64,000 nucleotides of DNA from Patescibacteria group bacterium (GTDB taxonomy: Bacteria; Patescibacteriota; UBA1384; CAJBMM01). Below the pieces are notes generated by a model. That model was not told the origin of the DNA, made no database searches, and worked only from the letters and a program-made list of their open reading frames with translations. The stretch's first letter is position 1, and each line of letters begins with the position of its first letter. Shown here piece after piece: positions 20,648 through 34,907 of this stretch. The stretch is taken from NCBI GenBank assembly GCA_041660565.1, contig JBAZWC010000002.1, forward strand, positions 149,520 through 213,519, written 5' to 3'. A program made the translations under genes and the position numbers.

Positions 20648-22252
20648 GTGCCCAACAACGTCGGTGACAAAATTTTACAGTTAGACCGAGATCAAGAAGA
20701 GGTTCAGGCTAAAATTAAAGCCGAGGCTCTTAAAATGCCGTACATTAATTTGTCCGGACGGCACATTGACGAAAATATTCTAAAACTAATTCCCAAAGAA
20801 CAGATTGAGGGTTTGCAGTGCGTACCGATCGCACTAGCCGGTCACCTTTTAACTGTCGGCGTAGTTGATCCACAAAGCCAGGGTGTGGTAGATGGGTTGA
20901 AAACTCTGCAAGAAATGACCGGCTATCAAATTAAAACCGCACTCGTATCTGCCACCAGTTTTGCTTACGGCAAAAAGTCATACGATCTTCTAGTTAAAAC
21001 CAACGAGGGTGAACGCCCGGTTGTGCTTGATAGTAAAAATCAAGACGAGCTTTTGCAACTATCTGCGCAGCTTAAAAGTGGCAAAGTTGACCGAGAAGTA
21101 ACGGTGTCGGATTTATTTCTGGCGATTATGGCCGAAGCGGTGCAGCAAAAATCATCGGATATTCACTTTGAACCAGATTCAGAAAGCTTAAAAATCCGCT
21201 TCCGCATTGACGGTGTTTTACATTTGGTAATGGAGCGCCCAACCGGCGATTATCACGGTCTGGAATCTCGCATCAAATATCTGGCAAAGATGCCCTTATC
21301 TGCCACCTCAAAGCCGCAGGACGGCCGTTTTACCATCCAAGTGTCAGACGCGGCACTAGATCTCCGCGTAGCCAGTCTGCCCACCGTATACGGCGAGATG
21401 ATGGTAATTAGAATTCTAAATCAAAGCCAAGTAATGCTGCCACTTAGCCAACTGGGCTTAAGGCCAGACCTGGAGCAGATGGCCAGAAGCGCGTTTACCA
21501 AACCGCACGGACTAATTCTAGTTACCGGCCCTACCGGATCTGGTAAAACCACTACCCTGTATGCCATCTTGCAAGAGTTAAACACGCCCGAGCGCAAAAT
21601 TATTACTATTGAAGATCCGGTGGAATATAAAATTGCCGGGCTAGAACAAAGTCAGGTAGATGCCGAGCGTGGCTATGATTTTGTCGATGCTTTGCGCGGC
21701 GCACTGCGCCAAGACCCAGACATTATTATGATCGGTGAAATTCGCGATAAAGAAACCGCCAACATTGGCATCCGTGCCGCTTTAACCGGACACATCGTGT
21801 TAGCTACGTTGCACAGTAACACCGCTCCGGCATCGTACAGTCGATTACTAGAAATGGAAATTGAACCATTTTTGTTTTCCGGCAGCATCAATCTAATTAT
21901 TGCTCAACGATTAGTGCGACTGCTTTGCCCAAACTGCAAAAAGGGGCGCGAAGTCACCAGTCAGGAAGCAAAAACCTTTCAAAAAGAGATTGGCCGCATT
22001 CCCAGCCAAATTTTTGACGCGGTTGGTTGTAGTCAGTGCCGCAATATCGGCTACTCCGGCCGCACCGCAATTTTAGAGGCATTCACACCTAGCCGAGCCA
22101 TCGAGCAAATGGCCATCTTACAGGCATCGGTAGCCGACTTTGAGCAACAGGCGCACAAAGACGGCATGATCACCATGACTCAAGATGGATTATTGAAAGT
22201 AGAACAAGGCATCACCACGATATCAGAGATCTATCGGGTAACGGCTGAATAA
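20648..22252 (+). CDS. pilB: Type IV pilus assembly ATPase PilB (GspE family).
   Basis: 534 aa. Walker A 'GPTGSGKTTT', 'DPDIIMIGEIRD', His box, and the C-terminal tetracysteine 'CPNC...CSQC' typical of PilB/GspE. Confidence 0.85.
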   Translation: MPNNVGDKILQLDRDQEEVQAKIKAEALKMPYINLSGRHIDENILKLIPKEQIEGLQCVPIALAGHLLTVGVVDPQSQGVVDGLKTLQEMTGYQIKTALVSATSFAYGKKSYDLLVKTNEGERPVVLDSKNQDELLQLSAQLKSGKVDREVTVSDLFLAIMAEAVQQKSSDIHFEPDSESLKIRFRIDGVLHLVMERPTGDYHGLESRIKYLAKMPLSATSKPQDGRFTIQVSDAALDLRVASLPTVYGEMMVIRILNQSQVMLPLSQLGLRPDLEQMARSAFTKPHGLILVTGPTGSGKTTTLYAILQELNTPERKIITIEDPVEYKIAGLEQSQVDAERGYDFVDALRGALRQDPDIIMIGEIRDKETANIGIRAALTGHIVLATLHSNTAPASYSRLLEMEIEPFLFSGSINLIIAQRLVRLLCPNCKKGREVTSQEAKTFQKEIGRIPSQIFDAVGCSQCRNIGYSGRTAILEAFTPSRAIEQMAILQASVADFEQQAHKDGMITMTQDGLLKVEQGITTISEIYRVTAE

Positions 22253-22350
22253 AATTCTAAATTCGAAATCCGAAGCACGAAACAAACATCAAGCACAAAA
22301 CCTCAAATTCAAAATTTTTCGAATTTCGAGTTTCGAATTTCGTGCTTAAA
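22253..22350. repeat. About 100-bp AT-rich dispersed intergenic element with inverted 'cgaagcacgaaa/tttcgtgctt' ends, copy A.
   Basis: 'aaattcgaaatccgaagcacgaaacaaa...ttcaaaatttttcgaatttcgagtttcgaatttcgtgcttaaa'. A related copy is at 42141-42262 and a partial one at about 60925-60990. Confidence 0.65.
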
Positions 22351-22356
22351 AGTTAT

Positions 22357-22671
22357 TTACATGAACATTCTGGCGACGGTCTTTTCGATCACGAACGCTA
22401 ACACAATCACAATAATACCAATAACCGCGTTGACAATACCTTGTCGAGCTTTTCCGGCTTTGGCTTCGTCTCCACCGGCAGTAATGTATTGAATACCGGC
22501 AATTAACAGGTAAATAACGGCTAATGCACCGGCGATGAATAGAATATCACCGATAATAATGTCAACCAAAGCGCTGAACGTGTAGTTTCCGGTTAGAGGT
22601 TGTAATGGCGAGAAGTTAGCTGAATACCCTAGGTTCTGTGCATGTGCGGTGGCGATGTGGAATAGTGACAT
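22357..22671 (-). CDS. Two-TM hairpin small protein, VirB2/T4SS-pilin-like (paralog 1 of 5).
   Basis: 104 aa: TM1 - 'GIQYITAGGDEAKAGKARQG' loop - TM2. No class III (type IV pilin) leader. Confidence 0.5.
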   Translation of the reverse strand: MSLFHIATAHAQNLGYSANFSPLQPLTGNYTFSALVDIIIGDILFIAGALAVIYLLIAGIQYITAGGDEAKAGKARQGIVNAVIGIIVIVLAFVIEKTVARMFM

Positions 22672-22694
22672 ATTGTCCCCTTTGTTAATTATTA

Positions 22695-23105
22695 TTAAAG
22701 AGATATTTGATCAGATACTGGAGTTGGTGAGGATGTCGAGGTTGAATCACCTTTGAAAATTCGGGTTGCGGCGGCCTGAATGGCTACTGCCAACAGAATG
22801 ATAACAATTCCAATGATAGCATTCAAGATGGTGTTACGTGCCTTAGTCGCCTTCGACTCGTCGCCGGCCGAGGCAATGTAGCTAATACCTCCCCAAAGCA
22901 GGAAAATAATCGCCACCACGCCACCCACATAAAAAAGAATATTTAACACGGTGTCTATAATGTTGCCAATGCTCCAACCGCTATCTAAAACCGGCACCAA
23001 CTTGGTGTAATATTTAAGGCCACTGCCTAATTCTTTATTAACGTTGGCGTTAATGTCGGTAGCTGCGTGTACAGCAGCGATATGAAACAAATTCGAAAAA
23101 ATCAT
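22695..23105 (-). CDS. Two-TM hairpin small protein, VirB2/T4SS-pilin-like (paralog 2).
   Basis: 136 aa. 'WGGISYIASAGDESKATKARN' loop between two hydrophobic helices. N-terminus 'LFHIAAVHAAT' parallels paralog 1's 'LFHIATAHAQ'. Confidence 0.5.
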   Translation of the reverse strand: MIFSNLFHIAAVHAATDINANVNKELGSGLKYYTKLVPVLDSGWSIGNIIDTVLNILFYVGGVVAIIFLLWGGISYIASAGDESKATKARNTILNAIIGIVIILLAVAIQAAATRIFKGDSTSTSSPTPVSDQISL

Positions 23106-23164
23106 AATAACCTCTCTGATAATAGCTTAGATTAAAAAGCAAATGGTTGTCAAATGGTGTGGCG

Positions 23165-23461
23165 TTATGAAAGAATTCGGCCGATTACTTCTATCATCGT
23201 AAACGACAATATCACAATCATCATTCCAATTAACCCGTTAATGGCTGCTTGGCGGCCCTTTTTGGCTTTAGCTTCATCACCCGCCGAAGAAATATACAAG
23301 ATTCCACCCCAAACAATCGCCACCACCGTTACCACGCCGGCGAGTGTTAATAAAATGTTAATCCCGATAATTGCAAAAGACACCAAATAGCTGCTCGAAC
23401 CATCACCCGGATTCGGTGAGTTAATGGGGGTAAATAATTTGGCTAAAGCGGCTAAATCCAT
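23165..23461 (-). CDS. Two-TM hairpin small protein, VirB2/T4SS-pilin-like (paralog 3).
   Basis: 98 aa. 'WGGILYISSAGDEAKAKKGRQ' loop between two TM helices. Confidence 0.5.
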   Translation of the reverse strand: MDLAALAKLFTPINSPNPGDGSSSYLVSFAIIGINILLTLAGVVTVVAIVWGGILYISSAGDEAKAKKGRQAAINGLIGMMIVILSFTMIEVIGRILS

Positions 23462-23818
23462 TTAATTTCCTAGCGGCGAAACCACGTTCACCGGAATTGG
23501 GTTGATGTTTGATGCGGGCATAATGAATCGCAACACTTCATAGATTATCACATTGGCTAGAATGATAATAATCATCCCGATAAAAATATACAAAATACGC
23601 TTCTTTGCCGTTTCGGCCTTGGCTTCGTTGCCATACGCCGTAAAGTAGGTGATAGACGCCATAATCAATCCGACAAAAGCGGAAACGGCGCCAATCCAAA
23701 TTAGTAGGGTACGAGCATAATCTAAAATGTTTTGTACATCGGACAACGTTAAGCTGGTCGGATCTTTCCCGCCCGTGACAATCTCGATAATAGTTTTTCC
23801 GGTGTTCATTCCTGCCAT
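23462..23818 (-). CDS. Two-TM hairpin small protein, divergent paralog 4.
   Basis: 118 aa. 'ITYFTAYGNEAKAETAKKR' loop between two TM helices. Directly abuts paralog 3. Confidence 0.45.
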   Translation of the reverse strand: MAGMNTGKTIIEIVTGGKDPTSLTLSDVQNILDYARTLLIWIGAVSAFVGLIMASITYFTAYGNEAKAETAKKRILYIFIGMIIIILANVIIYEVLRFIMPASNINPIPVNVVSPLGN

Positions 23819-23849
23819 GTTTCTATCCTAGCATCCTTATTCTAATCAC

Positions 23850-24992
23850 CTATTGAATATAATTTACTAGCCGACTGACTATCGTGATAACGGTTATCGA
23901 AGAAATCATTATCGCCACCCCAATTGACGCCCAAACCAAATTTTTCTTCGCTTTTTCCGCTTTTGCCGCATCTCCAAACGATAATCCGTACTGTATGCCA
24001 CTAACAATGAACGCAATTCCGGCTAGTAAGCTGGCAATAATAATAAACAGGTCAATCACCGTTTTGGCTAGCCAAACAATGATTTCAGAACCGGTTTTGC
24101 CTTTCAGTGTGGATAAATCTGGCACGGAAAATGAAATGGGCGAAAGAGATCCGGAGCCACCTGAGCCTCCAGAATCTGGCGGAGTGACACCATCTTTGCT
24201 GGTGGTTGTCACGGTGTTATCGTTGTTTTTATACGCGATGAAATCTGCCCCCGTCACCAACGATCCGGTTGATCCGGATTGAAAACGGGCGTTTAGGGTG
24301 TGAGCGCCTGCGGCACTGCCCGATGCGTCCCAAGTAAACGTCATCGCTCCACCCGATAGTTTATAATCAGCGGTTTTGTCCACGCCATCAACTAACAAAT
24401 GGAACTGGTTGCCAGAAGTGTAAGCAGTCAAGTTTGATGCCGAAACCGACACTGTCACACTCGCCTGACCCCCGCTAATCCCCGATATTGCCAGATCACT
24501 GGCGTTAGGCACAATCTCGCTACTTGACGCGGCACAACCACCTTTGTAGCTGGCGATCACAAACGAGGTGGTAGCAAGGTCGTTCGTCACACTCGGCAAG
24601 CTGGCCAAACCGGTGCCTCGTAATATTATGGTGATATTTCCGTTAGTAAAGTCTTGATTACCGGCGCACAAATCCCAAGTATACGGAGAGTTAAAAACCT
24701 TGGTTTTGTCGCCACCATGTTTTTTGAATTCAGAACCACCGTTCATAATATACAGATCGTATATATTGTATAAACGTTCCGTTGGGCCTGATACCGAAAT
24801 GGTAATTTGCGGATGACTGCCGCTTTCAAAAGTGTACGACGAAGTACCCAAGGTACTACCGGGGGTTGGTGATAAAGTGATGCTGTAATCAGCCGCGTGA
24901 ACCGGCTTGGCTAGAAAAATGAACGCGAAAAGAAATAAGAAGCTTAAGTTTCTTAAGATACTTAACGTCTTGGAAATTTGTTTATATTTCAT
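23850..24992 (-). CDS. Extended pilin-like surface protein: signal peptide, Ser/Thr/Gly-rich domain, and C-terminal two-TM pilin module.
   Basis: 380 aa. Signal peptide '...FLAKPVHA/ADYS'. About 270 aa rich in S/T/G (GGSGGSGS linker). C-terminus 'VSGIQYGLSFGDAAKAEKAKKN' flanked by two TM helices, the same module as the four upstream paralogs. Confidence 0.5.
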   Translation of the reverse strand: MKYKQISKTLSILRNLSFLFLFAFIFLAKPVHAADYSITLSPTPGSTLGTSSYTFESGSHPQITISVSGPTERLYNIYDLYIMNGGSEFKKHGGDKTKVFNSPYTWDLCAGNQDFTNGNITIILRGTGLASLPSVTNDLATTSFVIASYKGGCAASSSEIVPNASDLAISGISGGQASVTVSVSASNLTAYTSGNQFHLLVDGVDKTADYKLSGGAMTFTWDASGSAAGAHTLNARFQSGSTGSLVTGADFIAYKNNDNTVTTTSKDGVTPPDSGGSGGSGSLSPISFSVPDLSTLKGKTGSEIIVWLAKTVIDLFIIIASLLAGIAFIVSGIQYGLSFGDAAKAEKAKKNLVWASIGVAIMISSITVITIVSRLVNYIQ

Positions 24993-25018
24993 AATTATTT
25001 AAAATTGTGATTTGTTTT

Positions 25019-26392
25019 TCACTTCTGCAACAAATCAGTAACAGTATTGGCGGCGGCATCGATGGATTGCTGCAACGGTTGCCCCTTTAGCACGTTGTTA
25101 ATCATATCGTTAAAGGCCGCAGTTACTTTTTCTGGTGATTTACCTTGTTCCCAAGTAGTAGATGTAGTTACCTGATCGATAAACGGATCTGAAGTTTTGG
25201 GGTTTCGCGGATCTGGCAATAACGCCGAGGTACGCTTGGTGGCATTCAAATAGCTATTGGCGTGTGTGGCAGCATAAGCCAGAAAGTCCCAAGCAGTTGA
25301 TTGATTTCGACTGTTGTTTGTTACGGTCTCGGTCCAATAATTGGCGTAATTAACCGTGGTTGCGCCTTTAACTTGAGGCATATACGTAACTTGATATTGC
25401 AACGTAGGTGCTTGTTGCTTTAAGGTTTGAGCGATGTATTGGTAGCCAATCATCATTGCCAGCTGGCCGTTCTCGAATGCTTGCAGAGCATTAGGCTGGC
25501 TATTGTTCCATGTGTAGTTACTTTTTGCAGGGTTAGAAAAACTGGTATAGAAATCAAGAGCGTTAGTGCCATTATAAATTGGTTTACCGGATGCATCGTT
25601 GACCAGAGTATTAAACCGCGCCGATTTTGTTGGAGTATCAACCATGGTAGTGCCGTTTTGCATCATCAACAGAGACAAAATGTCAGCCGAGAACGACGTA
25701 TTATTAGCGGTGCCAAGCGCAATGCCACCTTGGGTGATGTTGCCACTTGCATCCTTTTTAGTCAAATATGGCAGTTCAGCCAACAGCTCATCCCATGTAC
25801 CCGGGAAATTGCGGAAAAGCGAGTCATCAAAGCTTTGATTATTCGAGTTTGCTTTGCGATAGGCGCTGCGGCCGTTATCCCATAGTTGCTGGTTAACGTA
25901 TAACGCTAAGTTATCTACGTACATTGGCAATCCATAAATCTTACCATCGATAAGATTATCGTTGGACACGATTTTAGCGAACGTTTGACTGTAATAATCT
26001 TGATTGTTACGCGTCTCTTTCTTGGTCTTAAAGAAGTCGTCCGGCATCGTAACCAGCTTATCCAAATCTCGCGGGATCCAGGTGTTGTTAATACTCCAAA
26101 TATCCGGCCCGGTACCGGCCGCCAAAGCATTTATTGTGGCATCTTCGTAATCTGCCAAATCTTTTTTAACATATTTGATAGTAACGTTGGGGTGAGCTTC
26201 TTGATAGTTCTGGATAATCTGAGAATACGTGTAATCTTCATCAAAAGTGCGCCACACGGTTAGCGTAATGTTACCGTTGGTTGTGGGGGTGGTGGTTTTT
26301 GTTTTGCCGCTAGACAACGCAAAAATCACAATAATTACCACAATAATTAGAGCAAATATCGCAATTGCCGCCGCAATCAGTTTGTTGTTCAT
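25019..26392 (-). CDS. Extracellular solute-binding protein (ABC transporter SBP family 1, sugar-type), membrane-anchored orphan.
   Basis: I prefer the internal start MNNKLIAAAIAIFALIIVV (ATG 26390-26392) over the track's 26440. N-terminal anchor, then SBP_bac_1-like features ('WRTFDEDY', 'PDIWSINNTWIP'). No permease or ATPase gene is adjacent. Confidence 0.55.
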   Translation of the reverse strand: MNNKLIAAAIAIFALIIVVIIVIFALSSGKTKTTTPTTNGNITLTVWRTFDEDYTYSQIIQNYQEAHPNVTIKYVKKDLADYEDATINALAAGTGPDIWSINNTWIPRDLDKLVTMPDDFFKTKKETRNNQDYYSQTFAKIVSNDNLIDGKIYGLPMYVDNLALYVNQQLWDNGRSAYRKANSNNQSFDDSLFRNFPGTWDELLAELPYLTKKDASGNITQGGIALGTANNTSFSADILSLLMMQNGTTMVDTPTKSARFNTLVNDASGKPIYNGTNALDFYTSFSNPAKSNYTWNNSQPNALQAFENGQLAMMIGYQYIAQTLKQQAPTLQYQVTYMPQVKGATTVNYANYWTETVTNNSRNQSTAWDFLAYAATHANSYLNATKRTSALLPDPRNPKTSDPFIDQVTTSTTWEQGKSPEKVTAAFNDMINNVLKGQPLQQSIDAAANTVTDLLQK

Positions 26393-26484
26393 CCCACCCC
26401 TTACTCGACTTTGTCGAAAAAATTCTAACCAAACTTCCAATTATCTCAATCCAGCCAATCAGTCCAATCTAGACCGATCGACAT

Positions 26485-27354
26485 TCACAGCTTCCCCAGA
26501 TACTTTCGTAAATCTTCCCCAATATCAGGGCGCTGCAATGCAAATTCTATGTTGGCTTTAATATATTCCAATTTGTTACCACAATCGTAATGACGCCCAT
26601 TTTGGACATCATACGCCAACACACTACCATTCTGCGCTAATTGGTTAATGGCGTCAACTAACCAAATCTCGCCATTTTTACCCGGGGTGATTGATTCTAA
26701 AGCGTCAAAAACCTCAGGATTAAAAACATAACCTCCGACACTAACAGCGTAAGGTGGGATTGCAGACGATCCGGGTTTTTCGATTACCGATTTAAGCTTA
26801 ATCAGTCGATCATCTACTTTTTCCCCAACTGCGATTGCGTACAAATCAGTCACCTTTGGATCTGTGCTTTGGTAAGTCATAATGATATTGGTTTGGTGCT
26901 GATTGTAAGCATCGATTAACTGCTTAATTCTGGGAGGATTTGCCTGAAACAGTTCATCACCCCAAACTACTACAAACGGAGAATCGCCAATAACCGATTT
27001 AGCTTGCAAGACAGCGTGGCCGTTACCTAATTGTTCGCGTTGGCGAATATAAACAAACCGCGCCATATCTGAAATGGCCCGGATTTCTTCGTACTGCTCA
27101 GTTTTTCCCGATCGTTTTAACAACTCTTCTAACTCAAAGTTATAATCAAAATGATCCTCAATCGGGCGCTTGGTACTACCGGTAATCAACACCACTTCTT
27201 CGATGCCCGAAGCAACGGCTTCTTCTACGATGTATTGAATAACCGGTTTATCCACAATCGGCAGCATCTCTTTTGGACTGGCTTTGGTCACCGGCAAGAA
27301 ACGAGTACCGAATCCGGCGGCCGGAATGACAATTTTAGTTACTTTTTTAGCCAT
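26485..27354 (-). CDS. galU: UTP-glucose-1-phosphate uridylyltransferase.
   Basis: 289 aa. 'KIVIPAAGFGTRFLPVTKASPKEMLPIVDKPVIQYIVEEA' is the canonical GalU N-terminus. Confidence 0.85.
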   Translation of the reverse strand: MAKKVTKIVIPAAGFGTRFLPVTKASPKEMLPIVDKPVIQYIVEEAVASGIEEVVLITGSTKRPIEDHFDYNFELEELLKRSGKTEQYEEIRAISDMARFVYIRQREQLGNGHAVLQAKSVIGDSPFVVVWGDELFQANPPRIKQLIDAYNQHQTNIIMTYQSTDPKVTDLYAIAVGEKVDDRLIKLKSVIEKPGSSAIPPYAVSVGGYVFNPEVFDALESITPGKNGEIWLVDAINQLAQNGSVLAYDVQNGRHYDCGNKLEYIKANIEFALQRPDIGEDLRKYLGKL

Positions 27355-27726
27355 TTATCCCGCCTGCACCGTTACAACTTTAGTACGGGAACGCGCGTCT
27401 TTTGGTACAGTAATGGTTAAAATGCCTTCTTTGAGAAGCGCGTTAGCTTTGTCGGCAATCACCAGCGCCGGCAAGGTATATGTGCGTGAAAATGGCCCCC
27501 AGTAGCACTCTTGAACTAAATAATCGCCTGCATCAGCTTGGTTTTGATTATGTCTCTCACCTTTAATGATAATGGTTTCGTCGGTGATAGAGATGTCCAA
27601 ATCTTCGGGACGAACTCCGGCAATCGGGGCTTTTAATACGATGTTCTCGACAGACTGATAAACATCAATGGCCAGTTGGCCGTCTTCGGTGTTTTCTGGG
27701 CTATTTGCTTCCATAAAAACCTCCAC
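27355..27726 (-). CDS. Hsp20/alpha-crystallin small heat-shock protein.
   Basis: 123 aa. 'LAIDVYQ...IVLKAPIAGVRPEDLDISI...GILTITVPK' alpha-crystallin domain pattern. Confidence 0.75.
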   Translation of the reverse strand: MEVFMEANSPENTEDGQLAIDVYQSVENIVLKAPIAGVRPEDLDISITDETIIIKGERHNQNQADAGDYLVQECYWGPFSRTYTLPALVIADKANALLKEGILTITVPKDARSRTKVVTVQAG

Positions 27727-27846
27727 TTCTTACAAATATTATACCTTAAATACAAATATTTTTCACATGTCATTCCCGCGAAGGCGGGAATCCAGTCTAT
27801 AAATAAAATATTCAATCATTTCAAATTTTAAATTTTAAATTGTTTT

Positions 27847-28548
27847 TTATACTCTCGCCACTGTAACACCAACCACTTTTTTTGCTCCGGCGTGCTTTAA
27901 CGCCGCCGCGCAAGCGGATAAAGTTGACCCGGTGGTGGCAATATCGTCGATCAAGAAAACGGTCTGATTTTGCATCTCTAAGCACTCAAAAACACCTTCG
28001 AGATTGTGTAAACGGCCGCGTCGTTGCAGTTTCATTTGGGGGATGGTGTAAACGGTGCGAAACAATCGATTAGATAAAATGGGCAAACCAAACTGATCCG
28101 CAAAAATGCGGGCAATTAAATCACTTTGATTAAAACCACGCCACCACAATCTCTGGCGATAAAGTGGGACTGGCACGATTATACTGTCGGGTTTGATCAA
28201 AGAGTTAAGATCTTTGATAACGGTTTGATTTTGGTTGATGATTTGCTTAAAACTATTTAGTGCATCGACGCGGCCTTCGTATTTGTACTGATGCATTGCT
28301 TCTTTAATTGGCCCTTCGTAATAGGCAAAAGCGAGTAAGTTATCGAGCTCTGAATGCTCGCGACATTTGGGGCAAGTGCGGCCAAGCGAAGATAATTTTT
28401 CACACCTCACGCAGCGCTGTTTAAGCATCAGCGTTATTTGATCAAAACATTTGGGGCAAATAGTCTGGTCTGCCTCACCACACCCTACACACAGCCGCGG
28501 AAACACCGTGTCAACTATGGGCGTGATGATTTTCTCTGCGATTCTCAT
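27847..28548 (-). CDS. comFC: ComF/ComFC-family phosphoribosyltransferase-domain protein.
   Basis: 233 aa. N-terminal double zinc ribbon (CVGC...CPKC; CVRC...CPKC) and C-terminal PRTase motif 'VFLIDDIATTGSTL'. Confidence 0.7.
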   Translation of the reverse strand: MRIAEKIITPIVDTVFPRLCVGCGEADQTICPKCFDQITLMLKQRCVRCEKLSSLGRTCPKCREHSELDNLLAFAYYEGPIKEAMHQYKYEGRVDALNSFKQIINQNQTVIKDLNSLIKPDSIIVPVPLYRQRLWWRGFNQSDLIARIFADQFGLPILSNRLFRTVYTIPQMKLQRRGRLHNLEGVFECLEMQNQTVFLIDDIATTGSTLSACAAALKHAGAKKVVGVTVARV

Positions 28549-28674
28549 AGCTCAATAATACGCTTCACTTTACGGCCAGTGTAGGGGCAATTCACGTTGA
28601 CCGGTAGGTCATCCGATGCGTTAGCTAGGACGGCGCCCGTCTAATTGAAAATATCCATCATTAGTCTAGAATAA

Positions 28675-29061
28675 TTGGTGTCGGAGAGGAAAAATATGAA
28701 TAAATATCAATCACAAATCAAAGATTTTGCCGTCGAACGGGACTGGAGTCAATTCCACAACCCCAAAGACCTACTACTTGGAATCGTAGAAGAGATCGGA
28801 GAAATTAGAAACATTATCAAATGGGAACAAGATCCAGAGACCTTACGCAAAGTGCTAAATGATAACAAGGCGAAGCTAGAAGACGAAATTGGCGATATCT
28901 ATTGGTTTTTGGCTTTACTGGCAAACGGTACAGATATTGATATTGATCAGGCAATTGAGAATGTGATTGCGAACAATAAAAAAAGATTTCCGGTTAAGAA
29001 AGTAAAATCACGCCATACCAACCTGTACCTCGGTGGCTCCGACGGCCAATACGAAAAATAA
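28675..29061 (+). CDS. MazG-like nucleotide pyrophosphohydrolase (small, all-alpha NTP-PPase).
   Basis: 128 aa. 'LLLGIVEEIGEI' and 'EDEIGDIYWFLALLA' are the paired EExxE/D metal-binding helices of the MazG/HisE fold. Confidence 0.6.
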   Translation: MVSERKNMNKYQSQIKDFAVERDWSQFHNPKDLLLGIVEEIGEIRNIIKWEQDPETLRKVLNDNKAKLEDEIGDIYWFLALLANGTDIDIDQAIENVIANNKKRFPVKKVKSRHTNLYLGGSDGQYEK

Positions 29062-29155
29062 CCGAAGCCATCGCAGTTTTTATTGTACATTAGCTCAAAA
29101 AATGTTATTGTAAGTGTGCTGTTAATTGTTAATTGTCAGCCGTTAATAGTTGTAT

Positions 29156-29248
29156 GGAGAGGTACCCAAGTGGCTGAAGGGGCGGGTTTGCTAAACCTGT
29201 AGTAGGCCGTAAGGCTTAGCGAGAGTTCGAATCTCTCCCTCTCCGCCA
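29156..29248 (+). tRNA. tRNA-Ser (anticodon GCT), type II with long variable arm.
   Basis: GGAGAGG acceptor, GCT anticodon in the 'TTGCTAA' loop, long extra arm, GTTCGAATC T-loop, G73 discriminator, encoded CCA. Confidence 0.85.
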
Positions 29249-29350
29249 TCCTTCGCTAACGCTTCGGAATGGCAAGCCATTTTGGAGCGATTAGTGAAGG
29301 AAAAGGAGAATTGGTATTCCGTAGCATTTGCGTAGGATACCTCTCCGCCA
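29239..29350. repeat. 112-bp perfect inverted repeat, left arm: tRNA-Ser 3' end plus 92-nt trailer plus a second copy of the 10-nt tRNA 3' end.
   Basis: 29239-29350 is the exact reverse complement of 30662-30773. Both arms begin and end with 'ctctccgcca' (the tRNA-Ser 3' end). Confidence 0.85.
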
Positions 29351-29391
29351 CGCTTAGCGTGGCATTTGGGACGCTCAGCGTCCCGCCATAT

Positions 29392-29467
29392 GTGCCTGTA
29401 GCTCAGTGGATAGAGCGTCAGATTGCGGATCTGAAGGTCGGAGGTTCAAGTCCTCCCAGGCATACCA
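29392..29467 (+). tRNA. tRNA-Arg (anticodon GCG as read).
   Basis: GTGCCTG acceptor (G1:U72), 'TAGCTCAGTGGATAGAGCG' D-arm typical of tRNA-Arg, anticodon loop 'TTGCGGA', GGTTCAAGTCC T-arm, encoded CCA. Confidence 0.75.
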
Positions 29468-29521
29468 AGCCAAAATTTCAAATTTTAAATTCTAAATTTT
29501 AAAACATTAAGGAAGCTCTTA

Positions 29522-29974
29522 ATGGATCAAGCGGAGTATCGTTCTAATCCTAACAATCTCTATCACATTTCTTGTGGCGGCGTGGTTTATCGTCAAAATA
29601 ATCAAAAAACTGAAATCGCTCTCCTCTACAAGAACAAGCGCACTGCATGGAATTTACCAAAAGGAACATTGCATCACAATGAAACTCTTGAACGCTGCTG
29701 CCTGCGCGAAATCAAAGAAGAAACTGGCTTCGAAACTATCGTTGAACAGTATCTTGGTGCGCTGACAGACCAGTGGTTCGATGAAACCCAAGGATACGAC
29801 ATCGATAAAACAGTGCATTATTTTCTGTGCAAATACGTTCCGTCTGGCAGCGAGATAATGGATGAAGAACACGACCGTGTTGAGTGGCTTGATGTCACGA
29901 AAGTTAGAGAACTCCTAACCGAGGGTCCAAAAAACGAGCATTTGATTATTGATCGAGCTGCTTTGCATTTTTGA
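29522..29974 (+). CDS. NUDIX hydrolase.
   Basis: 150 aa. Nudix box 'GTLHHNETLERCCLREIKEETGF' (Gx5Ex7REUxEExGU). Confidence 0.75.
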   Translation: MDQAEYRSNPNNLYHISCGGVVYRQNNQKTEIALLYKNKRTAWNLPKGTLHHNETLERCCLREIKEETGFETIVEQYLGALTDQWFDETQGYDIDKTVHYFLCKYVPSGSEIMDEEHDRVEWLDVTKVRELLTEGPKNEHLIIDRAALHF

Positions 29975-29978
29975 TTGA

Positions 29979-30224
29979 TTGTGCCAGAATATAAATATGG
30001 CAGATGATAACGACAAAAAACCAATTGAAAGCGATTTAGGGCAAGTTTTTGCATTCAAAAACGATATTCGCTGGTATGCCAGTGCGTTTGGCATTGCTGT
30101 AATTTTGATCGCTATTGCCTTTGTAGCGAAAGATTATCTGTTAATTTCACCCTGGATAACCGTTGCCGCCATTACTGTTTGTCTGATAGCTTTAATAGCA
30201 CACGGCCTGCAGCAGAAAAAATAA
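29979..30224 (+). CDS. Small membrane protein (two TM helices).
   Basis: 81 aa. Acidic N-terminus, then 'WYASAFGIAVILIAIAFVAK' and 'WITVAAITVCLIALIAHGL' helices. Confidence 0.35.
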   Translation: MCQNINMADDNDKKPIESDLGQVFAFKNDIRWYASAFGIAVILIAIAFVAKDYLLISPWITVAAITVCLIALIAHGLQQKK

Positions 30225-30256
30225 TTATTTAGTATTTTCATTGACCAAACCACCAT

Positions 30257-30499
30257 ATGGTGGTATTTTGTTGTTGGAAGGGAGACGGACTAATGGACGA
30301 AGTGTCTGGAGTAGTGAAGGGCATTGATCCGACCATGGGTCATATCGCCGTGGACGTTCTCGACGAAGGCATCCGACACGTTGTTCGCGCAAAGGTGCGT
30401 GATAAGGTCTCAGAAGGCGATCCGGTGGTGGTAACCAGAGCTCGCGGAACCGAGATCATCACAAGCGTTCGTCTGGCAAACTCGGGCGTTAGCAGGTAG
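30257..30499 (+). CDS. Small hypothetical protein.
   Basis: 80-aa ORF followed by two hairpins and a T-tract (terminator). Composition slightly GC-richer than the flanks. Confidence 0.3.
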   Translation: MVVFCCWKGDGLMDEVSGVVKGIDPTMGHIAVDVLDEGIRHVVRAKVRDKVSEGDPVVVTRARGTEIITSVRLANSGVSR

Positions 30500-30550
30500 C
30501 GACGCCACACTCCCTATTCAATCATCGGCCGAAAATTTCGGCCGCTCCAC

Positions 30551-30579
30551 GACGGCCGGCCTCCGGTCGTCTTTTCTTA
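30551..30579 (+). terminator. Rho-independent terminator candidate downstream of 30257..30499.
   Basis: Hairpin 'gacggccggcctccggtcgtc' followed by 'ttttctt'. It is preceded by a second perfect 9-bp-stem hairpin, 'cggccgaaaatttcggccg', at 30526-30544. Confidence 0.5.
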
Positions 30580-30630
30580 ACAAAAAAGGATTGAGTATTT
30601 AATCAATCCTCTATTCTCCACATTCCAAAT

Positions 30631-30773
30631 TGGCTTGCCATTCCGAAGCGCTAGCGAAGGATGGCGGAGAGGTATCCTACGCAAATGCTACGGAATACCA
30701 ATTCTCCTTTTCCTTCACTAATCGCTCCAAAATGGCTTGCCATTCCGAAGCGTTAGCGAAGGATGGCGGAGAG
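30631..30773. repeat. Right arm of the 112-bp inverted repeat (30662-30773) plus a 41-bp tandem partial copy (30631-30671).
   Basis: Arm 30662-30773 is the reverse complement of 29239-29350. The sequence 'tggcttgccattccgaagcg(c/t)tagcgaaggatggcggagag' occurs at 30631-30671 and again at 30733-30773. Confidence 0.85.
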
Positions 30774-30853
30774 GGTGGGATTCGAACCCACGAGGAGCTT
30801 GCACCCCTGACAGTTTTCAAGACTGCTGCACTAGACCACTATGCGACCTCTCC
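30764..30853 (-). tRNA. tRNA-Ser (anticodon TGA), type II.
   Basis: The reverse complement reads GGAGAGGTCGCATAGTGGTCTAGTGC...CTTGAAA (anticodon TGA)..., a long variable arm, ...GGGTTCGAATCCCACCCTCTCCGCCA. Confidence 0.85.
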
Positions 30854-30991
30854 ATTAATATAATCATAACATAAATTAACATCTGCGTCTATTAACGCGA
30901 AAACAACATTATAAATAATCGAATTAGTCACATTTTTTGTTAACAAAACCGACCCAGAACCACTGGCGAATGAAAAATTATTCATTAGCCG

Positions 30992-32206
30992 TTAGTTATT
31001 AGCTTGAATAATTTCTAGATATTTCTCGGCGCTAGGGAAAGTACCGCCGCTATTAGTCTTGCTCATGTCTGTGCGGAAATCATCAAACGTATAACGGGTA
31101 AAGAAAATGCGCTCGGCTCCAGCCGCAATCGCACCAGACACGCTAGTCTTAGTACTTTGGTAATTTTCTTCCCCGGTAGTACCGTAAAATGCCTCGGCTT
31201 CTGTGACCCAAATTGGCTTGGCTGTCACACCAGCATCTGAGAGCATTTTTTTGTACGCAGCCACATTAAAATCATGAGTCATACGATCATTAGAAATGCA
31301 ATGAACGTTGCCGATATCAAACGACGTCAACGCTTCAGCGTTAGTAAATACTTGACGATAAAAATTCAGCATCCGGCTATCTGCACCTGCCGCGCCAGCG
31401 ATTAAAACGTTCGCATTTGTGTCAGATTTCTTTACCGCTTGGTATGTTTTAACTAGCAACTGAGCGTATTCATCTGGTCCTTGTTTATAAAAATTCAGAC
31501 TACTTTCACCTGCCTGCGGTAGATTGTTTTGATATTGTAAATCGGGCTCATTCATTACTTCCCAGTACTTTACCGGCATTACCAGCCCGGGCATATCGTT
31601 TACCCCATCGCCGTCGTACCGCTCTACAATTTTTTGCACAAAAGTTTGGTACGCTACCCAGTCGCTCGGATTACATCGATACTGGGGAATATATGCTCCG
31701 CGACCCTTTTTATCATTCTTAGACAAAAACTCATCATTATCACCAACTTTGCAGGCTACGGGGTTGGTAAGTTTTTGTTGATCCCAATCTGCAAACGGCC
31801 AGATTGTTACCATTATTGCCACATTATTTTTCGAATAATTCTGGATTTCTTGATCGGCTAGGGTAAAATCGATCTCGCTACTAGCTGATTTCTGCATTGC
31901 ATCCCATACAAACGAACCGGGGTGCGGCCGAACCCACGCACCTCCTCGATCGATAATCGTCGACCCATCGTCTTCAGCGCCACCACCTAACCAACCAAAT
32001 TTATTTGTCAAAATCTTTTGTGATATTGATACAGGCGCGCCTGAGCTGGCGGTTGCGGATGCAGCGGTAGAGGTGCTATTTTTCTCGTTGCCTGACCGGT
32101 CTTTGACAACAAAAAACCAGATTAAAAATCCGGCGACTATTAGTACAAGTAAAGAGACGAACACCCACAACCATACCCTTGAACCATTTTGTTTATTTTC
32201 ATCCAT
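30992..32206 (-). CDS. Membrane-anchored glycoside hydrolase, GH5-like (TIM barrel).
   Basis: 404 aa. N-terminal TM anchor plus Ser/Ala-rich linker. 'KYWEVMNEPD' is the conserved NEP catalytic-acid motif of clan GH-A/GH5. A 'TEAE' candidate nucleophile region is present. Confidence 0.5.
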   Translation of the reverse strand: MDENKQNGSRVWLWVFVSLLVLIVAGFLIWFFVVKDRSGNEKNSTSTAASATASSGAPVSISQKILTNKFGWLGGGAEDDGSTIIDRGGAWVRPHPGSFVWDAMQKSASSEIDFTLADQEIQNYSKNNVAIMVTIWPFADWDQQKLTNPVACKVGDNDEFLSKNDKKGRGAYIPQYRCNPSDWVAYQTFVQKIVERYDGDGVNDMPGLVMPVKYWEVMNEPDLQYQNNLPQAGESSLNFYKQGPDEYAQLLVKTYQAVKKSDTNANVLIAGAAGADSRMLNFYRQVFTNAEALTSFDIGNVHCISNDRMTHDFNVAAYKKMLSDAGVTAKPIWVTEAEAFYGTTGEENYQSTKTSVSGAIAAGAERIFFTRYTFDDFRTDMSKTNSGGTFPSAEKYLEIIQANN

Positions 32207-32293
32207 ATTTCCCTCCCTTGTTTAATTATACAACCATATTTCAGCCCTGTACCAGAGTTGGCACAGGGCTGTTTCAGACATTGCGCTTAAAGT

Positions 32294-34069
32294 TCAGCGC
32301 TTCACCGGCGCCAGCGTCATCGTCCCACCCGGGACTAGTTTGGCGCCAAGGTTGACCGATCGCGGTGTTGACGGTCCCGACCCGTCCTTGTCTAGCAGTT
32401 GGAACCGCTTATGGGACGAGAACGGCCGATTGGCGCTGTCAGTACCATTCACCCACAGGTCAATGGTCTTGGCATGGGAATCGTACGATGTGTTTCCATA
32501 CGAATTCCAGTACTTGTCGAAAGTACACCCGATGAGCGGCAACGCATACTCGCCGTCTCGCGGCACCGTTATGTCAACCAGCGTCCGGGTATCTGGGAAA
32601 TACCCGCCGAAGAAATTGGTAGCGTACCACTGCCTCCAATATTCGGTTCCGCTCCGGTTGGAGGTTTTGAAGATGATCTCGTTAACATGGTAAGGTGCAC
32701 CGACCGTTTGCCCTCCCAACAGGTCAACGTAATAGTTCCAGCCGCTGTCAGTCGGCTTGCCGTAGTTGGTGCCGATAACAGTGATAGATGGGCCATTATT
32801 CAGCTTGGTGGCGATCAGTAAGTCAATCAACTTGTTGCTTAGACTGACGGACCAGAAATCCGTATGACCGCAACCCCACCTCCGGCTCGTATCGCGCGGC
32901 CCAAGCGTTGCTCCATCGGGCAGATGAGCGGCGCTCCCCACGGTAACAAACTGGTCATTGGTCCCACCAACCGTGTAGTATGACACGCTGTTCAGATGAT
33001 TGGTCGGGTAGTCCAGATCGTGGATGAAAGTGGACCAAGTCAGCATCTGCGTGATCGATAGCGCGATGGACTTGAGGCTGGACCACTGGCAGTCGGCGCT
33101 TTCCGGATTCATCACAGCGTCGTCACGCAGGGCAGTCAGAATCACATCAGCTTGTAACGACCCTGCGTTAGGTGTGGCCAACATGACCAGTTCTTGGACA
33201 TGATTCGACGCCCTATCTGACAGGTCAGTGTCTTGCTCAAGAGCGTAGCGAGACACCAAACCGCCCATAGAATGGGCAATCATGACGACCCGCTGTTCTT
33301 TTGGTTGTAGTTTGAGTAGGCGATTCAGCTCTTGTGCGTTCAGTGTGATATCGATCGCCCATGGATATTCGAAGGCATAAACCGCCTTGAATCCCCCTTG
33401 ACTGACAAGCGCCTGAGCAGTTGACTTCAGTTTGGAAGCGTCAGTCCACATACCGTGTACTAGCAACGCCACTCGACCGGTCGACGGGAAGACATGAGCG
33501 TCTCCTGTACCTGCAAGTAGCGAAATCTGGCAGACGGTTTCCTTTTGGTCAGAAAACGCAAGCAAGACGCCGTAGATGATAAACTGCGCCACGCCGCGGC
33601 TGGAGGATGACACTGGCATGGCAATCGTGGCCTTGCCGCCGGACTCGGTAACGTCTGCCCACTTCCACGTGGTACCATCAGACAAACGATACGCGCCCAC
33701 CAACACCGTGTTGGCTGGGTGAGTTGATGGCATGGACACAGTTGCCACACCATCGTTCACCGTCGTCGCCGTCTTGGCTTCGAACGCCAGTATCGGATTC
33801 GGAGCCGATGGTGGTTTGGACGGGATTGACGCGCCCTTGTACACCGTCGCGGTTACCGTGCCATTGGCATTCAACACGCCCGATGGGACAGAGACCGAGA
33901 CGCCGGTTGCACCTACATCAATCGTACCACCCGACGGAGTCATATCCTTGGTCACCGAGAACTTGTTCGACGCTGGCGGGGCGGGCGTTCCGCCTCCTCC
34001 ACCGCCACATCCAGACAACGTCGGCGCTGTGAACAACACGCCGATCAAGCAGACCCACGAAAGCTTCAT
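32294..34069 (-). CDS. Lipoprotein with alpha/beta-hydrolase (lipase-like, GxSxG) domain, encoded on a GC-rich island.
   Basis: 591 aa. Lipobox 'TLSGC' followed by a poly-Gly linker. 'IAHSMGGLV' nucleophile elbow. The DNA is markedly GC-richer than its surroundings. Confidence 0.5.
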   Translation of the reverse strand: MKLSWVCLIGVLFTAPTLSGCGGGGGGTPAPPASNKFSVTKDMTPSGGTIDVGATGVSVSVPSGVLNANGTVTATVYKGASIPSKPPSAPNPILAFEAKTATTVNDGVATVSMPSTHPANTVLVGAYRLSDGTTWKWADVTESGGKATIAMPVSSSSRGVAQFIIYGVLLAFSDQKETVCQISLLAGTGDAHVFPSTGRVALLVHGMWTDASKLKSTAQALVSQGGFKAVYAFEYPWAIDITLNAQELNRLLKLQPKEQRVVMIAHSMGGLVSRYALEQDTDLSDRASNHVQELVMLATPNAGSLQADVILTALRDDAVMNPESADCQWSSLKSIALSITQMLTWSTFIHDLDYPTNHLNSVSYYTVGGTNDQFVTVGSAAHLPDGATLGPRDTSRRWGCGHTDFWSVSLSNKLIDLLIATKLNNGPSITVIGTNYGKPTDSGWNYYVDLLGGQTVGAPYHVNEIIFKTSNRSGTEYWRQWYATNFFGGYFPDTRTLVDITVPRDGEYALPLIGCTFDKYWNSYGNTSYDSHAKTIDLWVNGTDSANRPFSSHKRFQLLDKDGSGPSTPRSVNLGAKLVPGGTMTLAPVKR

Positions 34070-34216: not shown

Positions 34217-34801
34217 ATGCATGTTCCCATAGAGAACATCGTTTCGGTTAGTTCTATGAAGGATAAATTAGAGAAGGCTGTTAATGATATGGGGCGTGAT
34301 GATATTTACGTCATCACTCACGGCGATAAGCCAGCTGCTGCGTTAGTTAGCATGGATCATCTTAAAAGTTTGATGAACAAAAGCGGCGAGAATGTTGATG
34401 TTCCGGCGCCAAAACCATCATCACCTTTGCCTCCACCGCCATCATTTAACTCAAACCCAACTCCGCCACCAGCTCCGATGGCGCCAAAACCATTACCGCC
34501 GCTACCGCCACTGCCTCCTTTGCCACCGGCACCTAAACCGATGATCGATGAGAAACCGGCCGATGCGCCGCTAGTAACTGAAAAAGAAGCCGACAAAGCG
34601 GTCTCAACCGGCACAGTTCTACCACCGCTACCTCCTTTGCCTCCTATCGGATCGACCCCAACTCCTCCACCAGCACCTAAACCATTTGCTCCTGAGCCAC
34701 CAAAAGTGACATCACCGTTTAGTAATTTGCCAAGCGCAGACATCAACGCTTCCAAACCGGCCGACGAGCCAGAGGAAGAAGATGGGGATAGCATACTATA
34801 G
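34217..34801 (+). CDS. Phd/YefM-like N-terminal domain fused to a long proline-rich acidic tail.
   Basis: 194 aa. The N-terminal 55 aa ('...DDIYVITHGDKPAAALVSMDHLKSL') resemble the Phd/YefM antitoxin fold. The rest is PLPPLPPLPP/PxxP repeats ending in an acidic tail. Confidence 0.4.
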   Translation: MHVPIENIVSVSSMKDKLEKAVNDMGRDDIYVITHGDKPAAALVSMDHLKSLMNKSGENVDVPAPKPSSPLPPPPSFNSNPTPPPAPMAPKPLPPLPPLPPLPPAPKPMIDEKPADAPLVTEKEADKAVSTGTVLPPLPPLPPIGSTPTPPPAPKPFAPEPPKVTSPFSNLPSADINASKPADEPEEEDGDSIL

Positions 34802-34907
34802 TAAAATTTTAAATTCTAAATTTTTAATATTAAAACAATGATGAAGAGCGGACCGAAACGTCCGCTTTTCTTGTGTTTTTGTGCTACATTAATAGAAAAG
34901 GAGAGTT

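Follow-up and report, generated by a model that had tools for sequence, protein, structure and literature searches.

The closest described counterpart of the locus reported here is the six-gene array SEML1_0014-0019 of a cultured relative, Candidatus Southlakia epibionticum ML1 (Saccharibacteria), which Wang et al. found essential by Tn-seq in 2023, with all six genes needed for epibiotic growth (PMC10633639). Arrays of this kind were surveyed by Quinonero-Coronel et al. in 2025, who counted 441 of them, each with 2-11 pilin genes, across 383 assemblies and with the highest abundance in Saccharimonadia and Microgenomatia; within-array identity was 25% on average and 54% at most, a pilin gene was near virB4 in only 1135 of 1948 assemblies, and the T4SS was often close to dnaA (PMC12102498). 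The same survey cites VirB2 paralogue arrays in Bartonella and Anaplasma, reads pilin paralogy as possible host-range variation, and gives adhesins as not detected, Ig-like-fused pilins going unmentioned in the parts consulted (PMC12102498). A pilus built from these pilins was still called a possibility in a 2025 review (PMC12857230). Few systems have been shown to be indispensable to the epibiotic way of life in this large, mostly uncultured group, and the Patescibacteria T4SS with its pilin array is one of them.

The window analyzed here is a 64,000-nucleotide stretch of an ultrasmall Patescibacteria group bacterium (GCA_041660565.1, contig JBAZWC010000002.1, positions 149,520 to 213,519 of the forward strand). 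Its positions 22357-24992 hold five co-oriented minus-strand genes with a common two-helix membrane module, which are likely the VirB2-like pilin set of a chromosomal T4SS typical of Patescibacteria, with the ATPase operon beyond dnaA. The locus shows the features by which such arrays have been defined in print, namely at least two tandem PF18895 genes, low identity, and a VirB4 and a TrsD/TraC-like gene in the genome. It is no new kind of system, and the overall picture is already published (PMC10633639, PMC12102498, PMC12857230); added here are position-by-position orthology, a recurring split layout and the architecture of an Ig-fused pilin, the pilin carrying two Ig-like domains being the less familiar part. 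The genes of the array are as follows.

22357-22671, minus strand: pilin 5, 104 aa, VirB2-like T4SS_pilin whose short leader ends in AHA↓Q; PF18895 37.3 bits
22695-23105, minus strand: pilin 4, 136 aa, T4SS_pilin whose short leader ends in VHA↓A; PF18895 49.2 bits, TrbC E = 0.006
23165-23461, minus strand: pilin 3, 98 aa, T4SS_pilin lacking a leader of the AxA-Q type; PF18895 26.7 bits
23462-23818, minus strand: pilin 2, 118 aa, T4SS_pilin without a leader; PF18895 37.4 bits, TrbC E = 0.014
23850-24992, minus strand: large pilin 1, 380 aa; PF18895 25.4 bits against a cut-off of 26.6

Intergenic gaps within the array were 0-59 bp, as in an operon, the stop of pilin 2 immediately adjoining the start codon of pilin 3, and identity between the window paralogues was 29-44%. 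Hydropathy analysis revealed two TM segments in each of the four small proteins (38-56 and 77-95 in pilin 5); the 380-aa protein begins with a signal segment and has its two TM segments toward the C-terminus; the C-terminal tail is Ser/Thr/Pro-rich in pilin 4 and Pro-rich in pilin 2. Alignment of the five modules gave TM1, a loop of the form G-I-x-Y-x-x-x-x-G-D/N-E/A-x-K-A-x-x-A/G-K/R, and TM2, with the invariant columns sitting in the polar loop motif and not in the TM helices. The G↓F/M-T/S-L-I/L-E class III leader of type IV pilins was absent from the five N-termini by direct reading, and no type IV pilin family appeared among the Pfam and NCBIfam matches of the five proteins. A prior sequence-only reading, which had described five paralogous two-TM genes sharing an inter-helix loop and lacking a class III prepilin leader, was borne out in all three respects.

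The N-termini differ by position. Positions 4 and 5 bear short leaders of 10-19 residues, which end in A-x-A↓Q in most loci examined; no leader is present at positions 2 and 3, and the signal peptide of the large member reads as canonical, ending VHA↓A. A canonical Sec signal peptide is longer than the A-x-A↓Q leaders, so their processing is conjectural.

For family assignment, the gathering threshold of PF18895 (T4SS_pilin; local copy PF18895.5) was 26.6 bits, which was reached by four of the five proteins, the 380-aa member falling 1.2 bits below, with independent E-values of 5.5e-13 to 1.5e-05 across the five, a similarity well beyond what chance would give. For a protein identical to the 380-aa member (NCBI locus tag WC773_03440), a PF18895.6 match is precomputed in database annotation. 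PF18895 matched all 31 small pilins from eight loci (the window and seven related loci), and was the top match for these 31 array members and for all five window proteins; the layout of that family, in which a short loop of polar and basic residues links a pair of hydrophobic helices, was seen by hydropathy and alignment, and by AF2 in the large member. Weak TrbC/VirB2 matches at E ≤ 0.01 were obtained for 9 of the 31 small pilins (best 1.1e-4), and in the window the PF04956 gathering threshold of 27.9 bits was not reached (best 17.2 bits, E = 0.006), scores that fit superfamily-level kinship, as judged from profile similarity, and not membership. The proposed kinship with VirB2, TrbC and T4SS_pilin thus held for the PF18895 profile and stopped short of the gathering score for PF04956. 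A PDB sequence search with the five-module pilin profile returned no solved structure at E ≤ 10.

A pattern scan of relatives' contigs gave at least five confirmed loci, and arrays of five genes that match in their sizes and context were present in L001, L002/L003, L005 and the P0002 contig. Best matches computed across genomes for L001 and L002 paired position by position, with identities of 68-71% to pilin 5, 50-54% to pilin 4, 43-51% to pilin 3 and 44-58% to pilin 2 for the respective orthologues. Because of this position-by-position orthology in two relatives, the five paralogues look like a fixed, differentiated subunit set, and the locus offers a testable set of five subunits with three N-terminal classes.

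The ATPase operon lies on the other side of dnaA, and the features concerned are listed below.

43980-45359, plus strand: dnaA (Bac_DnaA), followed by dnaN (DNA_pol3_beta) and recF (SMC_N)
49111-58269, minus strand: genes downstream of VirB4, encoding a 247-aa membrane protein, a PEGA/beta-propeller protein (417 aa), a 454-aa protein and a 1933-aa giant secreted protein
58356-60149, minus strand: VirB4-like ATPase of Patescibacteria type, 597 aa (P-loop_TraG, AAA_10, DUF87)
60146-60835, minus strand: TraC-like/TrsD-like protein, 229 aa, immediately upstream of VirB4 with a 4-nt overlap

VirB4 was 65-85% identical to the best 120 of 8000 scored homologues, whose named sources were patescibacterial or 'uncultured bacterium'. 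The TraC-like protein had no Pfam match at E ≤ 0.001 in its local copy, and was 69% identical to a gene in L004 carrying PF26593 (TraC-like). The genes downstream of VirB4 had homologues in the same order in L004 and the P0009 contigs, and weak matches to NLPC_P60, Glucosaminidase and Amidase_2 were recorded among these counterparts, the syntenic counterpart of the 454-aa protein in a relative carrying a weak NLPC_P60 match. Judging from these similarities, the VirB4 operon likely includes cell-wall-acting proteins, two of them homologous to a relative's gene and one with a counterpart weakly matching NLPC_P60. Homologues of VirB3/PrgI and VirB6 were not found in the window; PrgI adjoins VirB4 in relatives, and a search of the window for the relatives' PrgI and its 1442-, 317- and 331-aa neighbours likewise gave none.

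The array and VirB4 are 33.4 kb apart in the window, in place of the roughly 25 kb estimated before, and the dnaA region between them is the origin region separating the two halves of the T4SS. An HMM built from the five modules found no further pilin copy in the window, including its part of the VirB4 operon, so that this operon, as far as the window extends, is without a pilin. The earlier proposals that the array supplies the missing pilin component and that the system is bipartite are in keeping with this, and with the relatives: array and VirB4 operon occurred together on one contig in two of them, and the split layout was measured in one, a 1.04-Mb contig with array and VirB4 about 26 kb apart and dnaA between. 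That the two halves of the system lie on either side of the replication origin is a conserved and testable detail.

The 380-aa member of the array is built of four parts.

24894-24992, minus strand: signal peptide, residues 1-33
24207-24893, minus strand: two predicted Ig-like beta-sandwich domains, approximately residues 34-262
24093-24206, minus strand: Gly/Ser linker, residues 263-300
23853-24092, minus strand: pilin hairpin, residues 301-380

The ectodomain is rich in Ser, Thr and Gly, as had been noted (39%, against 19% in seven other window proteins), and was predicted by AF2 to be folded and not low-complexity. The AF2 model of this protein (13 sequences, pLDDT 74) placed the helices at 302-336 and 342-379, and an earlier model from five sequences (pLDDT 54) was left out of the fold search. 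Foldseek with the whole model returned tandem Ig ectodomains at E of about 1e-4, generic matches only. Ig-like folds are generic. Two cysteines, C109 and C153, are conserved. The arrangement of signal peptide, Ig-like domains, linker and pilin module recurred in at least 11 full-length cluster representatives, and identity to homologues was 17-49% in the ectodomain against 32-56% in the pilin module (41-56% among full-length homologues), which indicates that the ectodomain diverges faster. No VirB2 homologue is known to us that carries a large, folded ectodomain at its N-terminus. By its predicted fold class and topology, large pilin 1 is a candidate adhesin or tip subunit; the same role had been suggested beforehand, and the predicted signal peptide, Ig-like domains, linker and hairpin fit it. 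The conserved Ig-domain-bearing pilin is in this respect a concrete candidate for a host-contact component.

By analogy with VirB2/TraA biology, each subunit would insert in the membrane as a helical hairpin, with the Lys/Arg-rich loop (G-D-E-A-K-A-x-K-A-R/K) toward the cytoplasm and both termini outside, and subunits would then be extracted at a VirB4-containing platform and polymerize into a short pilus or conduit contacting the host bacterium; on this analogy we infer that the array may form a pilus. The five paralogues would act as differentiated subunits and not as interchangeable variants, and position 1, whose outward N-terminus comprises a full Sec signal peptide followed by the Ig-like pair and a flexible linker, would be a minor subunit displaying an adhesive or host-recognition domain at the filament tip or base. 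We advance only tentatively, as one possibility, that the Ig-fused position-1 pilin is an adhesin that caps or decorates the pilus and sets host range, with the four small paralogues as fixed major and minor shaft subunits and not antigenic variants. If this were true, the position-1 subunit could turn out to be the adhesin left undetected in Patescibacteria T4SS by the 2025 survey (PMC12102498).

These VirB2-family proteins might also build no extended pilus and work as membrane-embedded parts of the channel or stalk in a Gram-positive-type T4SS, or else as small adaptors in the membrane; the member with the Ig fusion would then be a membrane-anchored surface adhesin. This would account for the absence of any reported visualization of a pilus of PF18895 proteins in the literature cited on patescibacterial T4SS, and for the weak, below-cut-off NCBIfam matches to the 'pilin-like conjugal transfer protein' of Mycoplasma ICEs, from wall-less monoderms, but we judge it unlikely, as 5-11 diverged paralogues in fixed order and six individually essential ML1 genes look like major and minor filament subunits, and the basic inter-helix loop and hairpin fit the pilin plan.

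The array is flanked by the following features.

20648-22252, plus strand: PilB/GspE-type ATPase, 534 aa (T2SSE 409 bits, plus MshEN), convergent with the array
22253-22356, no strand: spacer between PilB and pilin 5, convergent intergenic, with an imperfect inverted repeat
25019-26440, minus strand: solute-binding protein, 473 aa (SBP_bac_8 and SBP_bac_1), membrane-anchored by one N-terminal TM segment
27355-27726: HSP20
27847-28548: ComF-like
29156-29248: tRNA-Ser

The repeat in the spacer has 23-nt arms, 87% complementary, and a fold of -26 kcal/mol (z = -2.7); it was not called by a simple terminator scan, the promoter/terminator scan being uninformative, and from its sequence it is probably a bidirectional terminator. 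The solute-binding protein gene lies upstream of the array, 26 bp from the large pilin, and occupies the same position in L002, L003, L005, L006 and L007, being cut by the contig end in L001; it probably belongs to the same operon.

The adjacent PilB raises the question of whether the array works with this ATPase instead of, or besides, VirB4, PilB serving as a VirB11-like traffic ATPase for the pilins. Convergent adjacency is found in the window and in L001, L002, L003, L006 and L007, where PilB identity falls as low as 40%; the window showed no further recognizable type IV pilus gene, and VirB11 also belongs to the T2SSE superfamily. The protein nevertheless scored 488 and 453 bits on PilB/GspE profiles (488 on the PilB model) against 57 bits on VirB11, and convergent transcription means that PilB and the array are not one operon. 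GalU, HSP20, ComF and YidC are as syntenic with the array as PilB, and in L009 and ML1 the array has no adjacent PilB; since the synteny is common to unrelated housekeeping genes and PilB adjacency is absent from ML1, adjacency is weak evidence for coupling, and we regard a PilB partnership as very improbable. The tail-to-tail arrangement pointed out previously is real, and what had been taken for an unusual juxtaposition of two filament systems is part of a conserved synteny that also takes in unrelated housekeeping genes.

That the five are holins, bacteriocin-immunity or unrelated small membrane proteins, with the Pfam match a compositional artefact of hydrophobic helices, has a negligible probability: besides many weak, scattered matches to unrelated TM families, there was a single sub-threshold PHROG holin match (E = 0.056), the alternative named in advance as refuting, against PF18895 as top match throughout (E down to 5e-13), invariant columns in a polar loop, no adjacent endolysin or phage genes or lysis context, and synteny with the annotated, essential T4SS pilin array of ML1.

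Read as the VirB2-like pilin set of a split T4SS, the locus provides a subunit set, an Ig-pilin and an origin split that could guide tagging, imaging and host-range work in cultivable Saccharibacteria. Compared with known systems, it shares with type IV pilins, which often include minor-pilin sets, the position next to a PilB ATPase gene and the small, hydrophobic character of the subunits, but is without the G↓F-T-L-I-E leader and has two TM helices where those have one N-terminal helix and a globular head. The likeness of position 1 to VirB5 tip proteins and PrgB-type adhesins lies in the proposed role only, that of a minor surface component in target-cell contact; there is no sequence or fold relation, the window ectodomain consisting of predicted Ig-like sandwiches fused to a pilin module. 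With the VirB2/TrbC/TraA pilins (PF04956), some of which have a cleaved N-terminal leader, the window proteins have in common small size, a helical hairpin in the membrane, basic residues in the loop between the helices and an association with a VirB4 ATPase, whereas the window host is a monoderm, lacks VirB5, VirB7, VirB9 and VirB10, and has PF04956 scores below gathering. Set against the survey, the within-array identity lies between its mean and its maximum, and the position-specific orthologues in the two compared relatives contrast with its reading of paralogy as host-range variation (PMC12102498). The ML1 array differs in that its six genes adjoin the VirB4/PrgI operon, all on the same side of dnaA, where the window has five genes 33 kb from VirB4 and across dnaA from it, and in being without a 380-aa Ig-fused member (its largest is of about 185 aa), a solute-binding protein-pilin pairing in the window's form, or an adjacent PilB. 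The two nevertheless share tandem PF18895 genes (about 100-185 aa in ML1), some with weak TrbC/VirB2 matches, a T4SS of VirB4/TraC-like type in which neither a relaxase nor a coupling protein was recognized, be it in the ML1 cluster or in the window, and a chromosomal position near dnaA with Hsp20, comFC and tRNA-Ser flanks (SEML1_0020-0022 in ML1).

Five minus-strand ORFs occupy window positions 22357-24992, each at the coordinates claimed by a sequence-only reading of this DNA.

Features of the pilin array and its surroundings in the window
20648-22252, plus strand: PilB, convergent with the array
22357-22671, minus strand: ORF, pilin 5, 104 aa
22695-23105, minus strand: ORF, pilin 4, 136 aa
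23165-23461, minus strand: ORF, pilin 3, 98 aa
23462-23818, minus strand: ORF, pilin 2, 118 aa
23850-24992, minus strand: ORF, large pilin (position 1), 380 aa
25019-26440, minus strand: membrane-anchored solute-binding protein (SBP; SBP_bac_1/8), directly upstream of the large pilin, 26-bp gap
27355-27726: HSP20
27847-28548: ComF-like
29156-29248: tRNA-Ser
41022-41861: yidC
43980-45359: dnaA

Gaps within the array measure 0-59 bp, and Shine-Dalgarno-like purine runs lie 5' of three of the ORFs, consistent with one operon, of which the SBP gene is probably also part. Aligning all four small proteins to the C-terminal end of the 380-aa protein recovered the shared module proposed in the sequence-only reading (TM helix, G-I-x-Y-x-x-x-x-G-D/N-E/A-x-K-A-x-x-A/G-K/R, TM helix), and a hydropathy scan upheld its two-TM topology: each small protein has two TM segments, and the large one has two at its C-terminus besides a signal segment at the N-terminus. 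At array positions 4 and 5 the proteins begin with a segment of 10-19 residues, shorter than standard Sec signal peptides, that closes with a conserved A-x-A|Q-like motif; the four closest genomes show AHAQ, ALAQ, AYAQ and TLAQ. Similar endings (VYAQ, AHAK, VFAA, AYAF) were seen in some pilins, with array positions not assigned, of two more distant loci, L006 and L007, and no such leader was present at positions 2 and 3. These motifs suggest processing of some subunits, and the segments at positions 4 and 5 may be cleaved leaders leaving an N-terminal Gln. Position-5 orthologues in relatives contain a Cys pair that is absent from the window copy.

PF18895 (T4SS_pilin) was the best Pfam match for all five proteins, at 37.3, 49.2, 26.7 and 37.4 bits for the small proteins and 25.4 bits for the large one (gathering score, 26.6 bits), and PF18895.6 is annotated on a database protein identical to the large pilin (WC773_03440, NCBI MAG 'Patescibacteria group bacterium'). 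TrbC/VirB2 (PF04956), the other family to which the hairpin had been likened, gave a weak secondary match in four of the five (E = 0.006-0.21). In NCBIfam the sole family matched, a Mycoplasma ICE 'pilin-like conjugal transfer protein', stayed below threshold, and the pilin-module profile had no match among PDB sequences. All 31 small array members collected from the window and seven related loci matched PF18895, with TrbC/VirB2 the second most frequent family (nine members, best E = 1.1e-4). Type IV pilins were rejected, as no class III prepilin leader occurs at any of the five N-termini, in agreement with the sequence-only reading; holins were rejected after a single marginal PHROGs match, and an unrelated two-TM family is effectively excluded. 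On these matches and the missing leader, the array proteins are classed as VirB2-superfamily pilin-like proteins, neither type IV pilins nor holins. Many database proteins contain 2-8 pilin modules per polypeptide (e.g. 552 aa with six stretches in P0133, 820 aa with eight in P0178); these may be genuine polypilins, or separate tandem genes that a different genetic code or read-through has joined in gene calling.

The window covers the origin region of a patescibacterial chromosome, with dnaN and recF in addition to yidC and dnaA, and the VirB4 operon lies downstream of recF.

Genes of the VirB4 operon in the window, all minus strand
482-aa membrane protein
229-aa protein, 69% identical to a relative's PF26593 TraC-like (TrsD-type) protein
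58356-60149: VirB4 (P-loop_TraG, AAA_10)
247-aa membrane protein
PEGA/beta-propeller protein
454-aa protein; syntenic counterpart in a relative has a weak NLPC_P60 match
1933-aa secreted giant protein

The VirB4 gene is 33.4 kb from the array, not ~25 kb as previously stated. An HMM of the five modules, run against all window ORFs of at least 40 aa, found no further copy; the VirB4 operon, as far as it lies inside the window, is therefore without a pilin, as had been proposed. PrgI/VirB3, which adjoins the TraC-like gene in relatives, was not found in the window. In relatives (locus L004, 1-9000), PrgI (VirB3-like) and proteins of 1442, 317 and 331 aa lie between the 482-aa homologue and the TraC-like gene; at window 60836-64000 the 482-aa and TraC-like genes are immediate neighbours, with the 482-aa gene first, and a search of the window recovered none of the three proteins. 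Their genes and that for PrgI may be located past the window end or in another part of the genome. Local G+C reaches 54% at 32001-34000 (DUF7379/PGAP1-like hydrolase gene) and 47-50% at 46000-56000, including the gene for the 1933-aa protein, and ~41-45% in most of the remaining window.

Contigs of relatives carry the same block (ComF-like, HSP20, GalU-type NTP-transferase, SBP, large pilin, four small pilins, convergent PilB), with yidC, rnpA, rpmH and dnaA within a few genes beyond PilB. The block is retained in L006 and L007 (PilB ~40%, SBP ~29% identical), with two large members in the L006 array. Compared with locus L002 and the contig of database protein P0003, the window block (20648-34069, from PilB to the DUF7379 hydrolase) is inverted relative to yidC-dnaA, placing dnaA on its far side and a glycosylation island (~0.3-20 kb) beyond PilB. 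On the yidC side of the hydrolase, 34217-36280 encodes a PhdYeFM antitoxin-domain protein, an HNH endonuclease and a NUDIX protein, perhaps a small amount of mobile or accessory DNA close to the breakpoint of the rearrangement. In all-against-all BLAST of 15 modules from the window, L001 and L002, the best cross-genome match of every protein was the same-position gene (43-71% identity; ~24-60% between positions, 29-44% within the window); the five paralogues therefore arose before these genomes diverged and have kept their order. VirB4 homologues with 85% and 82% identity probably share a contig with an array, and this co-occurrence was confirmed in the record for a 1.04-Mb contig (ena:ERZ27253376:k141_2079645), with VirB4 at ~247.4-249.2 kb, dnaA at ~266.6-267.9 kb and the array at ~275.1-277.7 kb; the arrangement in two loci on either side of the origin, ~26 kb apart in this contig, is thus conserved. 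The nearest genome-collection loci, among at least five confirmed, are labelled Candidatus Saccharibacteria.

The SBP-large pilin pairing is kept in L001, L002, L003, L005, L006 and L007, with the two genes 1-3 bp apart in closer relatives, and the SBP gene, near which no ABC permease or ATPase was found, may be co-transcribed with the pilins. On the other flank, PilB is separated from the array by a 104-nt spacer with an imperfect 23-nt inverted repeat and is adjoined by the ~20-kb glycosylation island (297-20560), encoding four GT2, one GT4, two Wzy_C O-antigen-ligase-like and two PMT_2-like mannosyltransferase-type proteins, GtrA, DUF2304 and two methyltransferases. With this island nearby, the large pilin and the pilin tails, both Ser/Thr-rich, are conceivable candidates for glycosylated surface proteins.

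The S/T/G-rich ectodomain described earlier for the large pilin was recovered by composition, with 39% Ser+Thr+Gly in residues 34-290 versus 19% in seven other window proteins. A search of 1.84 billion cluster representatives with the large-protein profile gave 6,502 proteins at E <= 0.001, 11 of which match over all 380 positions. Many of the rest are long (up to ~790 aa) and bear one pilin module, at the C-terminus; N-terminally extended pilins are therefore common in the family. Full-length homologues are 31-45% identical. A usable AF2 model (13 sequences, pLDDT 74) predicted a signal helix (residues 3-26), two beta-sandwich domains (~37-148 and 169-255, pLDDT 77-91), a disordered Gly/Ser linker (271-290) and a helical hairpin (302-336 and 342-379), and Foldseek against PDB matched the model to tandem Ig-like ectodomains (ICAM-5, PECAM-1, Fabs; E ~1e-4), matches that identify a fold class without pointing to a particular homologue. 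Among the conserved features are Y-x-W-D-L-C-x-G-N, a second Cys (C153), W-D-x-S-G-S-x-x-G and, immediately N-terminal of TM1, V-P-D-x-S-x-L. Identity to database homologue P0001 is 17-49% in the Ig-like domains and 41-56% in the pilin module of full-length homologues (32-56% across all twelve sequences compared). The basic loop is cytoplasmic in VirB2/TraA, and the positive-inside rule places it likewise; if so, the N-terminus of the large pilin would face outward, the signal peptide permitting export of its 270-residue N-terminal domain. We infer a minor subunit displaying an adhesive or recognition domain. No description of an Ig-like domain/pilin fusion was found in the literature searched.

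Taken together, the array is probably the VirB2-like pilin set of the VirB4 machine, which would extract the pilins from the membrane; their assembly into a host-contacting pilus or conduit, with the Ig-bearing subunit as a specialised minor component, is held with less confidence. The main rival, a Gram-positive-type T4SS without a pilus in which the proteins serve as membrane or stalk components, is considered improbable. Coupling to the neighbouring PilB is very unlikely, since that protein scores as PilB/GspE and not VirB11, is transcribed convergently, is no more syntenic than unrelated housekeeping neighbours, and is missing beside the arrays of L009 and Candidatus Southlakia epibionticum ML1. 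The sequence-only reading thus stands in its observation and is supported in its interpretation, once the VirB4 distance is corrected and less weight is given to the tail-to-tail PilB, of which the convergence itself holds.

In ML1, the array SEML1_0014-0019 is essential in the Tn-seq table of Wang et al., is followed by Hsp20, comFC (K02242) and tRNA-Ser, and is assigned to PF18895, two members also to PF04956, in their structure-based table (PMC10633639); the window array has the same three neighbours. In the survey of 3,035 genomes by Quinonero-Coronel et al. 2025 (PMC12102498), VirB2-like pilins are reported in 1,948 VirB4-containing assemblies, near virB4 in only 1,135, with 441 arrays of 2-11 pilin genes, chiefly in Saccharimonadia and Microgenomatia, a mean identity inside arrays of 25%, T4SS often near dnaA, and no adhesins detected. 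In a 2025 review, a monoderm pilus is called an 'intriguing possibility' in view of such arrays (PMC12857230). Arrays of this family, set apart from virB4 and close to the origin, are therefore already known, and the window locus adds another example of the described array type; its main points of interest are that the Ig-pilin fusion is conserved and that the five subunits form a fixed, differentiated set.
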